A stretch of 64,000 nucleotides of DNA from Octopus vulgaris. Taxonomy: Eukaryota. The stretch is taken from contig OX597815.1 in the NCBI GenBank assembly GCA_951406725.2, forward strand, positions 20,460,001 to 20,524,000. The letters are read 5' to 3'. The notes below the pieces were generated by a model, which saw only the letters and a list, made by a program, of their open reading frames with translations, was not told the origin of the DNA and did not search any database. Below are positions 12,794 to 38,491 of the stretch, one piece after another (position 1 is the stretch's first letter; each line of letters opens with the position of its first letter). A program made the position numbers and the translations under genes.

Positions 12794-12851
<58 letters not shown>

Positions 12852-12869
12852 GTATCTTTATTGTATTTA

Positions 12870-13165
12870 TATTTGTGTAACATCGTCTGCATTTCCGTCC
12901 TTGTCTTCGTATATCTTTGATGCTTTTTCCTAAGGAATCTAATGCTCTTAGCTTAGTTTTTCCTTGGGGCCGGCCAGATTGGAGCAATCTGAAGATTAAT
13001 CAGCCGAAATTGCGAGGATGATCCGGTTCTTGACTGAGGATAAAAGGCTTCGAATGGCTCGTCCTTGTTTTTTGTATCGTCTATCAGGATGTTTTGTTGT
13101 CCCTTTTTGCATCACCTAGTTGTCCGGATGTTTTGCGTTCTTGTCCCATTTTGTATTTTATTTTA
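12870..13165 (+). repeat. Partial copy (C) of the direct-repeat non-coding element family carrying the structured motif
   Basis: Reverse complement matches about 19430-19710 (ggccagattggagcaatctgaagattaatcagccgaaattgcgaggatgatccggttcttgactga). Confidence 0.75.
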
Positions 13166-16939: not shown

Positions 16940-17062
<123 letters not shown>

Positions 17063-17875
17063 GAAATGAAGAAAATGCTGACAAATAATTGAAGTAATTT
17101 AAGTAATTTAATTAGGTGAAAGTTCTTTTTACCGGTTGCGCATTTGTTATGCTTATCAAAATATAAAAGAGAGATTAGAGTCTGTCTCTTATATGTGAAA
17201 AAAAGAGGCTCCAGAGTTGTTTGGGATTTGCTTGGTTTCGCGCCTAAAATTTTGATTGGTCATTATGAAGGGGTCACGTGAATGTTTGAATGGAAGTTGG
17301 TGTTGGGGTAAGAAAAAAAGGCTCCAGAGAAGTTAAAATTTGGCTAGTGTCCCGCCTAAAATTTCTTATTGGCCATAATAAAGAGGTCACGTGAATGTTT
17401 AGAATTTTCGAAAATAGTGTTGTTGAAAATTCTTATTGTTCAGGCTGGTCAGTAGACGTCATGTGGATATCTTAAATAGCTTTTTAGCGCGTAGTTAGGG
17501 AGTGTATTTTCCGCTTGACTGGATAAGTAAGTTCGTTTAGAACAGGGAGAGCTGTATGTATGTATGTGTGTGCGCGCGCGCGCGCGTGTTTATATGTATG
17601 TTGGGGCGCGCGCGCGTGTATATATGTGTGTGTGTGTGGGTACAATTTTCAATATTTATAGTTCTGCTGGCCTTGTGCCTGTATCGGGAAGCAACGTATT
17701 TGTGTGAAGTCAATATTTACAGCCATTTCCAAAAAATAGTGTTGGATGTTTTGCACCCGTATTCAATTATGTGTATGTGTGGAACCATATATTTGTGTGT
17801 GTCATGGTGTTAATATCTGGGTAAAGGTGTGTGTAGGGTGTGTGCAGGTGTAAGTGTGTTTGTTGTGGGTTCGTG

Positions 17876-18124
17876 TTAGGGGCATGTGTTTAGAAGTGGT
17901 CTGTATTTATTAATAAGGTGGGATTCCATGGTTATTCGCTGGGTATGAGTGGCATTGTCTTTAAATTTGTAGAGGGGAAAGATTCTAAAATTGGGATGGA
18001 GTTGTGCGGCACAGGTATCAATATGTGCACTAAATGCTATTTTTCTATATTCCTGTATTTTTATTTGGGATCTGTGGACAGTCATGCGTTGGCGGAGGCT
18101 ATTTTTTGTTTGGCCTATGTAGTG
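17876..18124 (-). pseudogene. Inverted copy of the GIY-YIG C-terminus (from HYIG onward)
   Basis: Same peptide HYIGQTKNSLRQR...LLNTCP on the minus strand. Confidence 0.85.
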
Positions 18125-18145
18125 GGCCAAACAAATAGAAGGGGG

Positions 18146-18517
18146 CCAAACCTAATAGAAGGTCCGGAATTCCTTTTTAAACAAGGACAACGTTTCACAG
18201 TAAGACACAACTTCACATGCGCATCAGAAAACCTAGTATATGTCTTAACTTGCTCGGGCTGTAATGAACACTACATAGGCCAAACAAAAAATAGCCTCCG
18301 CCAACGCATGACTGTCCACAGATCCCAAATAAAAATACAGGAATATAGAAAAATAGCATTTAGTGCACATATTGATACCTGTGCCGCACAACTCCATCCC
18401 AATTTTAGAATCTTTCCCCTCTACAAATTTAAAGACAATGCCACTCATACCCAGCGAATAACCATGGAATCCCACCTTATTAATAAATACAGACCACTTC
18501 TAAACACATGCCCCTAA
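18146..18517 (+). pseudogene. 5'-truncated PLE GIY-YIG endonuclease C-terminus, open to the stop codon
   Basis: FTCASENLVYVLTCSGCNEHYIGQTKNSLRQRMTVHRSQI...AHIDTC...MESHLINKYRPLLN shows the LVY/YIG motifs, catalytic R, E and N and the PLE Cys/His pattern. Confidence 0.88.
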
Positions 18518-19222
18518 CACGAACCCACAACAAACACACTTACACCTGCACACACCCTACACACACCTTTACCCAGATATTAACACCATGACACACACAA
18601 ATATATGGTTCCACACATACACATAATTGAATACGGGTGCAAAACATCCAACACTATTTTTTGGAAATGGCTGTAAATATTGACTTCACACAAATACGTT
18701 GCTTCCCGATACAGGCACAAGGCCAGCAGAACTATAAATATTGAAAATTGTACCCACACACACACACATATATACACGCGCGCGCGCCCCAACATACATA
18801 TAAACACGCGCGCGCGCGCACACACACATACATACATACAGCTCTCCCTGTTCTAAACGAACTTACTTATCCAGTCAAGCGGAAAATACACTCCCTAACT
18901 ACGCGCTAAAAAGCTATTTAAGATATCCACATGACGTCTACTGACCAGCCTGAACAATAAGAATTTTCAACAACACTATTTTCGAAAATTCTAAACATTC
19001 ACGTGACCTCTTTATTATGGCCAATAAGAAATTTTAGGCGGGACACTAGCCAAATTTTAACTTCTCTGGAGCCTTTTTTCTTACCCCAACACCAACTTCC
19101 ATTCAAACATTCACGTGACCCCTTCATAATGACCAATCAAAATTTTAGGCGCGAAACCAAGCAAATCCCAAACAACTCTGGAGCCTCTTTTTTTCACATA
19201 TAAGAGACAGACTCTAATCTCT

Positions 19223-19267
19223 CTTTTATATTTTGATAAGCATAACAAATGCGCAACCGGTAAAAAG
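19223..19267 (+). ncRNA. Degenerate minimal hammerhead motif in the PLE 3' region (mirror copy at about 17126-17170, minus strand)
   Basis: TTGATAA-gcat/aacaa/atgc-GCAA-ccgg-TA-aaaag; stem II and palindromic stem III are kept, but the core differs from CTGANGA/GAAA. Confidence 0.55.
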
Positions 19268-19370
19268 AACTTTCACCTAATTAAATTACTTAAATTACTT
19301 CAATTATTTGTCAGCATTTTCTTCATTTCCTTTTTTATATATCACCACTCGTGTTCGACATCTCCTTTTT

Positions 19371-19428
<58 letters not shown>

Positions 19429-19434
<6 letters not shown>

Positions 19435-20123
19435 AAAATACAAACTGGGACAAGAACGTAAAGCATTTAGAAGACGATACAAAAAACACGGACGGGACAT
19501 TCGAAGCCTTCAACCTTCAGTTAAGAACCGGATCATCCTCGCAATTTCGGCTGATTAATCTTGAGATCGCTCCGATCCGGCCAGCCCCAAGGAAAAACTA
19601 AGCTACGAGCATTAGATTTCTTTGAAAAAGGATCGAATGTATACGAAACAAGGACAGAAAAACGGACGATGCCACACGAATATAAATACAAAAAACAATA
19701 ATTGTAATAACTGGACAAAAACAGCGGGTGTCTTACGACTATAGACAGTACAACTTAGTTTAGCTGGCGTATTTGGAAAAAAATGCCTTTTTCGGCAGAC
19801 GAAGACAACGATGTTCTCGTGGCGCTGGTTAGAAGCCGAAAGGCTGGTTGACCAGCGGTCACGTGAGATGAGAAGAGAGAGAAAAAAAGGGGGCAAAGGA
19901 ATCAAAGAGAGAGAGAGAGAGAAAGAGGGACGAAGGCACCAAAGGGGGGGAGAAGAGAGAGAAAGAAGGAATTAAAGAGGTGAGAAGAAAGAGAGCGTGC
20001 CAAGGATTGGCTTGCCGACAGAATCAGTGAGGTGTAAATTGAGAAAGACAGAGAAATGTGAGAGAGAGTGGGGGAAGAGGAGACCAAAGAATAAGAGGCA
20101 AGAAAAGAGAAAAGGAGGAGGAG

Positions 20124-20175
<52 letters not shown>

Positions 20176-20389
20176 GCAGATCAAAGTAGAGTGCAAAGTG
20201 TGAAAGGCAGAGAGAGAGACAGTGTTATAGAGTCGTACCAAATTTAAAGGAATATATACTTACATACAAGGCCAAAGATGGTACGGGCGCCGCTATATAT
20301 ATTATATGTAGAAAAATACAAACTGGGACAAGAACATAAAACATTTAGAAGACGATATAAAAAACACGAAGCCTTCAATCTTCAGTCAA
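19429..20389 (-). mobile_element. Non-coding element A with direct terminal repeats (19429-19524 and 20307-20389; offset 878)
   Basis: Repeat aaaaatacaaactgggacaagaac...gaagccttcaa.cttcagt.aa at both ends, GA-rich interior, (TA)n flanks; strand inferred from the T-rich tail. Confidence 0.7.
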
Positions 20390-26164: not shown

Positions 26165-26169
<5 letters not shown>

Positions 26170-26996
26170 TTTACATAAATAAATAACGTGAAATACACGA
26201 AGGGACGAACAAAAAGACAAACGGGTCATTCAAAGCCTTCATTCTTCAGTCAGAAACTGATCCCTCATCGCAGATTTCGGCTGTTTAATTCTGAGATCCG
26301 CTCTGAATCAGCCAGCCACAGAAAGAAAGAATACAACGCAACAGAGACGAACATGAAACGAAAAATCTTTTTGGGAGACAGTAACGGTTAAAAACATGGA
26401 TGACACAGGCGCCCTACGGCTTTGACACAAAAAGAGAGACACAACAACAATATCAGCAAGCGTGGAAAAATAATTACCTTTTCGGTGATAAGACACATGT
26501 TGAACAAGCAGCCGATGGAAACAGAATGGCTGAGGCAGCAAGTCACAAGAGGGTAAGAGAGAGAAGAGGGTAAGAGAGAGAGGGGACCAAGGAGGGTGGA
26601 AGGCGAGGACAGAAGCAGTGACCGAGAGAGAGAGGGAGAGAAGGAATCAGAGAAGAAGCAGTGACCAAGAGAGAGAGGGAGAGAAGGAATCAGAGAAGAA
26701 GCGGTGACCAAGAGAGAGAGGGAGAGAAGGAATCAGAGAGGCTGGGAGAAAAAGGCGCCGAAACAATTTGGCAACGAAGCAATGGCGAAGGAAAGAAAAT
26801 AGTTTAAAGACATCATGCAGGGGTTTTGATATGATAAACATAAAGAAGTTATTATGCACGTACGCTGCGAAATATATAATAAACCTTTACATAAATAAAT
26901 AACGTGAAATACACGGAGGGACGAACAAAAAGACAAACGGGTCATTCAAAGCCTTCATTATTCAGTCAGAAACTGACCCCTCATCGCAGATTTCGG
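26165..26996 (-). mobile_element. Non-coding element B with direct terminal repeats (26165-26280 and 26881-26996; offset 716)
   Basis: Near-identical 116-bp repeats, GA-rich interior and structured motif homologous to element A; (TA)n flank. Confidence 0.75.
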
Positions 26997-33399: not shown

Positions 33400-33471
33400 T
33401 GCCGTGACCAGGATTCGAACCTGGGTTACCACGGGCACAACGTGGGGTCCTAACCACTAGACGATCACGGC
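33400..33471 (-). tRNA. trnH-GTG: tRNA-His(GTG) with atypical C37
   Basis: GCCGTGATCGTCTAGTGGTTAGGACCCCACGTTGTGCCCGTGGTAACCCAGGTTCGAATCCTGGTCACGGCA gives a complete cloverleaf with intact A and B boxes. Confidence 0.92.
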
Positions 33472-38456: not shown

Positions 38457-38491
38457 GTTTCCGACGAAGAGCTCCGCTCGAAACGTTAAAC
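38457..38491 (+). ncRNA. Minimal hammerhead motif (CCGACGA variant) in a PLE-like tail at about 38405-38815 that is interrupted by a SINE
   Basis: gttt-CCGACGA-a-gagc/tcc/gctc-GAAA-cg-TT-aaac; stems I and II are perfect and stem III is the palindrome ACGT. Confidence 0.7.

Follow-up and report, generated by a model that had tools for sequence, protein, structure and literature searches.

Three short repeats in a 64,000-nucleotide stretch of the Octopus vulgaris genome (contig OX597815.1, positions 20,460,001 to 20,524,000; hereafter the window, to which all coordinates refer) lead to what is best read as a new hammerhead wiring, predicted for Naiad-type retroelements and their non-coding derivatives. 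These repeats, named elements A and B and fragment C, are probably short non-coding Penelope-type retroelements, likely mobilised by a Naiad-type enzyme, whose RNA is predicted to form a hammerhead of knotted order and to cut itself 130-135 nt from its 3' end. Judged from sequence, the motif is a hammerhead, lying on the minus strand of the window in A and B and on the plus strand in C, in which the core is ordered non-circularly: the cut site comes first, GAAA next and CUGANGA last (type SGC). The original prediction had placed an unrecognised self-cleaving or replication structure here in place of a hammerhead; the structure appears instead to be the hammerhead itself, with its core complete in the order S-G-C.

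Elements and copy number

Element A (19430..20389, minus strand) is a non-coding Penelope-type insertion composed of one 878-nt unit and a partial 5' repeat. Its 3' end lies at 19430 and continues into (TA)n. The direct repeat of A (19430-19524 against 20307-20389, offset 878) is about 80% identical over 96 columns with one 13-nt gap, and the partial 5' repeat (20307..20389, minus strand) begins 41 nt 3' of the predicted cut and lacks the cut site. Element B (26165..26996, minus strand) has a 716-nt unit and a partial 5' repeat at 26881-26996, which begins 15 nt 3' of the predicted cut and is 97% identical to 26165-26280 (offset 716). Fragment C (12838..13165, plus strand) is an inverted, 5'-truncated relative of A from an older A-related subfamily, and its positions 12838-13082 match A at 85% on the opposite strand. 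Both direct repeats were thus present where they had been predicted. The layout that was originally described as common to the three held for A and B, both of which have a GA-rich interior and (TA)n flanks, but not for C, a 5'-truncated piece with neither a terminal repeat nor a GA-rich interior. The second hairpin of that layout was seen in the sequence of A (19785..19844, minus strand) and is weaker in B.

The genome searched comprised 2.8 Gb and gave 1450-2240 first-look candidates per subfamily, the best 40 of which were scored. There were about 1450 such candidates for the A family, with the best 40 at 98-100% identity, and about 1575 for the B family; A and B copies were 98-99% alike. 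Further families were obtained with patterns. Family E came from a search that required the core words and stem I (210 matches, none for the reversed control), family D from a pattern naming no pairing (259 matches, control 1), and families F (Naiad) and G (D-like) from a Naiad-type pattern (546 matches, control 0), while a 28-nt A/C motif had 2755 exact genome matches and none when reversed. Since the matches to the family patterns far exceed those of the reversed controls, the elements are not a product of chance. Families D and G (loci L118-L147 and L222-L251) are non-coding and show the same permuted fold with unrelated stem sequences; the unit of D is about 745 nt and is laid out as in A. 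A small GNRA-capped hairpin occurs in A at 19730..19739 (minus strand), about 170 nt upstream of the cut, and a similar hairpin recurs in related families: its exact words were found in 9 of 25 A/C copies, in 10 of 34 from family E, in 5 of 15 from B and in 0 of 25 from D, truncation having removed this part from many of them.

When the copies are read on the strand of the core words, the 3' end is fixed at 130-135 nt after the predicted cut and runs into (TA)n, the 5' ends vary freely, and inverted 5' pieces are found at several loci. One locus (L191) holds a tandem array of eight units with a period of 830/832 nt, one of the units being 655 nt, and with one hammerhead in each. No coding match to Penelope-like elements (PLEs) was found inside A, B or C. 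With a constant 3' end, truncated 5' ends, copies that are partly in tandem or inverted, and insertion into (TA)n, the pattern matches that described for Penelope-like elements including Naiads (PMC8557442). The idea of a retrozyme-like non-autonomous family was borne out. A DIRS/Ngaro or LTR derivative, which had been named as the finding that would explain the repeats in another way, does not account for them: the fixed full-length termini at both ends were not seen, the 5' ends vary and the 5' repeat is partial, and the elements are of the Penelope type (Naiad-like). Contigs from four presumed-RNA sequencing runs cover the motif; such contigs carry no information on strand, ends or level. 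In A (20245-20250, minus strand) and in one E copy (L041, 365-375), the word GTAAGT precedes a pyrimidine-rich interior. This could be an intron in the 5' UTR, of the kind found in other PLEs; it was not seen in B or D.

Order of the hammerhead blocks

From 5' to 3', the motif is made up of the 5' strand of stem II, an arm, tandem GA, stem III with the NUH cut site, stem I and a short linker (about 1-6 nt from stem I to stem II, depending on the family), followed by the 3' strand of stem II, GAAA, stem III, a 3-nt bulge with GA, the arm, stem I and CUGANGA. For A, sequence and covariation place it at 19514..19586 (minus strand). The strands of stem II are at 19582-19586 (5') and 19549-19553 (3'), the arm pairs 19574-19580 with 19528-19534, and the tandem GA is at 19571-72 and 19536-37. 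Stem III with the AUC cut site occupies 19565-19570 and pairs with 19541-19544, which puts the predicted cut between 19565 and 19564; stem I pairs 19560-19564 with 19521-19525, GAAA is at 19545-19548 and the core at 19514-19520. The copy of A in the window has A9G (19514) and one mismatch in stem I (19522), where family copies read CUUGA-CUGAAGA, and because of these two changes its ribozyme is likely to be impaired.

The hammerhead of B (26243..26317, minus strand) has all core bases and helices intact. Here stem II pairs 26313-26317 with 26279-26283, the arm 26305-26311 with 26257-26263, stem III with AUC 26295-26301 with 26270-26274, and stem I 26289-26294 with 26250-26255; GAAA is at 26275-26278, CUGAAGA at 26243-26249, and the predicted cut falls between 26295 and 26294. 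In C the ribozyme is at 12968-13040 (plus strand), with the predicted cut between 12989 and 12990 and with mismatches in stems I and II.

The crossing helices of the original prediction (ggctg/cagcc and ccggatc/gatccgg, the latter being ctgattc/ggatcag in B) were found again at their places and correspond to stem II and to the arm beyond the kink-turn, and the choice of the minus strand as the RNA strand of A and B was right. The permuted order of the hammerhead words, GAAA followed by CTGAAG, was also correct, except that the core of A reads CTGAAGG and not CTGAAGA. Stem I, stem III and the AUC cut site had been missed; with them the S-G-C core is complete.

Covariation

The pairings first became visible in diverged copies that were caught by chance in flanks. 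In total, 99 distinct copies were compared (25 A/C, 15 B, 34 E and 25 D), and a MAFFT alignment of 40 A/B/C/E copies was evaluated against 500 shuffles and slid controls. For the full structure on this alignment, 86% of the cells were paired and there were 130 double changes, compared with 43 in the shuffles and with 12-20 in the slid controls. The original claim that the helices covary was right. The covariation score was 0.386 against 0.163 and was reached by none of the 500 shuffles. Because the copies are related, these counts represent non-independent events.

Stem I was 98% paired and stem III (A15.1-U16.1) 94%, and all three stems (I, II and III) show covariation between subfamilies that are unrelated. 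The sequences of stem I differ in A/E, B, D and F, being UCAAG/CUUGA in the A type and UCAGAA/UUCUGA in B, and family D has its own complementary stem I (CUGUC/GACAG) together with a different stem III. Among the 99 copies, position N7 is free (A in 39, U in 38, G in 18 and C in 4), H17 is C in 83 and U in 16, and the pair 15.2-16.2 alternates between C-G and U-A in all but one; family F uses UA at the cut site. The invariance of the core words is partly built in, as many copies were picked by patterns requiring the core words (families E and D) and stem I (E). On this evidence a hammerhead-type fold is highly probable. The motif would be a hammerhead by every sequence test and yet fall outside the published type SGC, since its block C is broken.

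Position of stem II

Stem II takes its 5' strand from a site about 20-25 nt before the cut, detached from CUGANGA. In a hammerhead, A9 is expected to be joined to G10.1 directly or via 1-2 nt, and no such join was found here; nor was an unbroken block C (stem I strand, CUGANGA, stem II strand), of which D, F and G could form a weak version rich in wobble pairs. The number of pairs, out of five, that can form directly after A9 was 0.04 in A/C, 0.0 in B, 1.5 in E and 3.5 in D; for D, F and G it was 3.5-3.9, with 2.0-2.4 of them Watson-Crick in F and G. With the upstream strand, the pairs seen were GGCUG/CAGCC, GGCCG/CGGCC, GGCCU/AGGCC, GGGCA/UGCCC, GGACA/UGUCC and GAAGG/CCUUC. This strand formed all five pairs with its own 11.x strand in 68% of the 99 copies as against 14% after swapping, the corresponding values for the downstream strand being 5% and 19%, and on the alignment upstream stem II had 35 double changes (0 of 500 shuffles). 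The pair G10.1-C11.1 next to GAAA was kept with the upstream strand in 88 of the 99 copies. It is very likely, from these comparisons, that upstream stem II is the working form.

Kink-turn signature and predicted helix IV

A kink-turn consists of a 3-nt bulge and then tandem G-A/A-G pairs between two helices. Stem III is extended beyond a 3-nt bulge and tandem GA steps, both GA being present in 90 of 99 copies; the GA on the G side was required by the pattern that found D, and in D the opposite strand is two bases longer. Stem III thus carries the kink-turn signature; a sharp bend and the binding of a protein of the L7Ae family would go with it. The kink-turn arm would connect stems I and II at their ends, which in the published account of type SGC are joined by an extra helix.

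The short linker would hold stems I and II side by side, and the kink-turn would fold the stem III arm back, with the end of the arm reaching the ends of stems I and II. The chain would then enter and leave between A9 and G10.1, which in B and D would occur through a fourth helix. An arm bent back in this way would answer a geometric puzzle raised for some SGC RNAs in the available part of PMC10085705. The flanks of B (26226..26335, minus strand) are predicted to pair together into helix IV, which would close the gap between A9 and G10.1. In the B family this helix had -13.1 kcal/mol, compared with -10.1 for family-swapped flanks and -8.3 for shuffled ones, while it was no better than controls in A/C (-8.1 against -8.1 swapped) or E (-8.0 against -8.3). 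A helix between the flanks is supported in B and D.

Probable cleavage footprint and proposed life cycle

The 5' ends were mapped for the first 100 listed of the 2755 matches, in positional order on one contig; ends beyond -148 were left out of the counts on account of a TTA repeat and subfamily differences. Ends fell at +1..+21 after the predicted cut in 28 of 96 copies at risk, at -21..-1 in 5 of 68 and at -42..-22 in 0 of 63 (Fisher p=6e-4), and two of the five at -21..-1 begin exactly at +1 in an ungapped reading. Only 4 of the 100 lay at +22..+39. Short copies are nearly all solo ends with no body following, and roughly two in three of the copies sampled extend beyond the cut. The partial 5' repeats of A and B likewise begin on the 3' side of the cut. 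The accumulation of 5' ends at +1..+21 is likely a footprint of cleavage in vivo. It agrees with a template that begins at the cut and is then trimmed, or attached to (TA)n through microhomology.

In the proposed cycle, a read-through transcript would be cut at each ribozyme, and reverse transcription would be primed at the (TA)n target, from a constant position lying 130-135 nt beyond the cut on its 3' side. It would often halt at the cut end, which would give short solo copies; otherwise it would go on, through a ribozyme left uncut, by a jump between templates or around a ligated circle, and so give the partial direct repeats and tandem arrays. Active cleavage in intact copies is regarded as quite likely.

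Relationship to Naiads

In the available part of their description, Naiads have (TA)n targets and partial tandem and inverted insertions, and no canonical hammerhead is reported for them (Craig et al. 2021, PMC8557442). Naiad_Ovul, which also has (TA)n targets, is tagged 'HHR_half_core' in the accessible supplement of that paper. The consensus 3' ends of Naiad_Ovul and Naiad_Obim given there were read by eye as the same fold, with an upstream stem II GACACC/GGUGUC, a GUA cut site, stem I CUGCCC/GGGCAG and tandem GA. Three other mollusc Naiad 3' ends examined in the same supplement (PMC8557442), including Naiad_Bpla and Naiad_Mphi, lack the permuted fold. Naiad_Esco, read by eye, has its blocks in the same order. 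The three 3' ends without the fold share a conserved motif that presumably resembles a permuted twister ribozyme, again by eye. To judge from the published portion consulted, A, B and C are like Naiads in their (TA)n targets, their partial tandem and inverted insertions and the 3' fold shared with Naiad_Ovul and Naiad_Obim, but they encode no protein.

In the octopus genome, the F ribozyme was found downstream of a Naiad reverse transcriptase (RT) on the same strand at 5 of the 10 best loci (1.5-kb flank) and at 10 of 20 more diverged loci. A ribozyme of the A, B or E type occurred at 0 of the 20 diverged Naiad loci, where 134 of 752 Naiad candidates had been scored, and the RT matches among those 134 are mostly broken by stops. 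No sequence link of A, B and C to a Naiad ORF was found among the genomic loci scanned. Mobilisation of A, B and C by a Naiad-type enzyme is nevertheless likely.

Alternative explanations

The motif might also be an ordinary type-SGC hammerhead with a bulge of 5-7 nt after A9, with stem II formed by the downstream GGCU and the upstream strand serving as a switch or decoy by which cleavage is sometimes blocked. In A, B and C the GGCU after the core can pair with CAGCC at 4 of 5 positions, the downstream helix is 68% paired on the alignment (9 of 500 shuffles on pairing, 7 of 500 on the covariation score), and D, F and G could have a wobble-rich stem II that starts 0-2 nt after A9. However, the downstream strand ignores changes of 11.x (mean pairs of five, own against swapped, 3.79 and 3.70; 12 double changes on the alignment with 72 of 500 shuffles), whereas the upstream strand follows them (4.61 and 3.79) through at least five sequence types and retains G10.1-C11.1, and this explanation is consequently unlikely. 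Given the 68% downstream pairing, the 7 of 500 on covariation and the wobble-rich stem II of D, F and G, a switch between two folds may still operate. About as improbable is a conserved fold that does not cut, i.e., a hammerhead-derived binding platform for a protein of the retroelement or a kink-turn protein, with the pile-up of 5' ends caused by stalling of RT in the knot. The core would be opened at an unprecedented place, the majority of the copies extend beyond the cut, and the +1..+21 segment is somewhat richer in AT/TA steps (4 against 2-3 per 21 nt), which favours (TA)n joins. On the other hand, the variation obeys catalytic rules, with N7 free, NUH with C, U or A as H, and the C-G/U-A switch at 15.2-16.2; moreover, the pile-up ends at +1 and is thin at +22..+39, where RT would first meet the arm helix.

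A further alternative concerns the partner and not the fold: the mobiliser could be an active canonical Penelope-like family, the ribozyme having been inherited from an extinct Naiad. Three such families (ORFs of 717 aa, 784 aa and >1057 aa) have many near-identical copies with long open frames, in contrast to the mostly broken RT matches of the Naiads, and the A and B families are young. Against it, none of the three families showed the permuted fold in the 40 + 30 loci scanned, their 3' ends are unlike A or B by eye, and the search for Naiads scored 134 of 752 candidates. A canonical mobiliser is possible but less likely than a Naiad-type enzyme. Nested PLE ORFs beside B and C copies were considered as partners and proved to be unrelated insertions.

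Comparison with known ribozymes and retrozymes

The published scheme, in the part available, contains six hammerhead orders and assumes CUGANGA to be inseparable from stem II; it knows of no alignment with more than 1-2 nt between CUGANGA and its stems, and for this reason treats block C as unbreakable (PMC10085705). Type SGC (HRIMA-1 and variants) cleaves in vitro; its RNAs, according to the same portion, come from metatranscriptomes, and the genomes of known organisms yielded none (Eckert et al. 2023, PMC10085705). Compared with the published type SGC, as far as it is described there, the present motif has the same S-G-C block order, full core, short linker between stems I and II and pseudoknotted topology. 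It differs in that its 10.x strand is upstream of the cut site, whereas that of type SGC follows CUGANGA and is accompanied by a separate I-II interaction helix, and in the kink-turn signature of stem III; the word 'kink' is absent from the available supplement of that paper (PMC10085705). Type SGC is also metatranscriptomic, while the present motif is repeated thousands of times in the genome of an animal. According to a review, the viroid hammerhead of CChMVd tolerates a single additional base between A9 and G10.1 (PMC3705267). A precedent for a core fully opened between A9 and G10.1 was not found in the literature, and neither was a description of the upstream wiring of stem II, in a search to which most subscription papers were external. 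On balance, we lean towards an active seventh hammerhead wiring, non-circularly permuted, opened between A9 and G10.1 and locked by the kink-turn, with cleavage perhaps dependent on a host protein of the L7Ae family; it would be the missing ribozyme of one branch of Naiads and of the retrozymes derived from them, in many thousands of copies.

Metazoan non-LTR retrozymes have type I hammerheads and self-paired circles of 150-450 nt, in the parts available of their descriptions (Cervera and de la Pena 2020, PMC7229834; Li et al. bioRxiv 10.64898/2026.07.22.740005). Set beside these accounts, the octopus elements are similar in being non-coding, with one hammerhead per unit, tandem arrays and a proposed PLE origin, and dissimilar in their units of 716-878 nt, their permuted fold and a B monomer that is not self-paired (z +1.59). 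Canonical PLE hammerheads are circularly permuted minimal type I motifs that act as dimers, as stated in the available text (Cervera and de la Pena 2014, PMC4209133). As in the present motif, the ribozyme sits in the pLTR close to the 3' end of an element of the Penelope type; so far as that text describes them, they do not have the full stem III of 4-5 bp within one copy or the crossing helices. Similarly, helix II is formed as a pseudoknot in the pseudoknot hammerhead, which has Pistol-like connectivity instead of S-G-C and for which no break after A9 is described in the accessible part of the report (Zhan et al. 2024, PMC11300833).

The fold would break the published rule that CUGANGA is inseparable from stem II. 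Non-circular hammerheads had previously come from metatranscriptomes and metagenomes, bar one doubtful bacterial case, and are here predicted in a large animal repeat family. The fold would also explain directly why hammerheads seemed to be missing from some Naiads (those tagged 'half core'), and it leaves a likely footprint of the predicted cut in the genome. A natural kink-turn on a hammerhead would be a point of protein control and a compact scaffold for engineering. Moreover, as standard type I-III descriptors and Rfam miss the fold, the counts of ribozymes in invertebrates may be too low.

Other candidates were rejected. An HDV-like fold on the plus strand (with an L3-like word) has no usable P1 by eye and a type II hammerhead no usable stem I by eye, while the S-G-C pairings covary. 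No match to the twister, pistol, hatchet or hairpin ribozymes was seen. A pattern scan of metagenomes gave seven matches, all in coding DNA without stems II and III, which were judged to be due to chance. Rfam at the gathering score found no ribozyme in the window, only a tRNA (33400-33471, minus strand, 57.7 bits). Of the 462 matches in an Rfam E-value scan, the 150 listed were all microsatellite-driven miRNA matches apart from one tRNA.

A loose scan of the window gave three candidates for canonical type I hammerheads away from these elements; in all, such loose candidates lie at 38461 (+), 63154 (+), 24744 (-) and 35085 (-), and they are probably the 'other elements' in which the original prediction had located hammerheads. 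Motifs resembling type I were seen by eye in the 717-aa and >1057-aa PLE families and not in the 784-aa family. In the very young 717-aa family (at least 150 matches at 100% identity), the motif lies in the 3' UTR (L157, 2400-2480, minus strand) and has CCGAAGA for CUGANGA; in the >1057-aa family, a minimal type I-like motif at the 3' end (L207, 3670-3715, plus strand) starts with UUGAAGA. An inverted-repeat remnant of a young canonical PLE is located at 17050-19342 of the window, with arms of 811 and 269 nt that are 100% complementary. It includes a GIY-YIG end (Pfam E 1.7e-7) and belongs to the family that has 784-aa open frames elsewhere, with no hammerhead seen in the 3' UTR.
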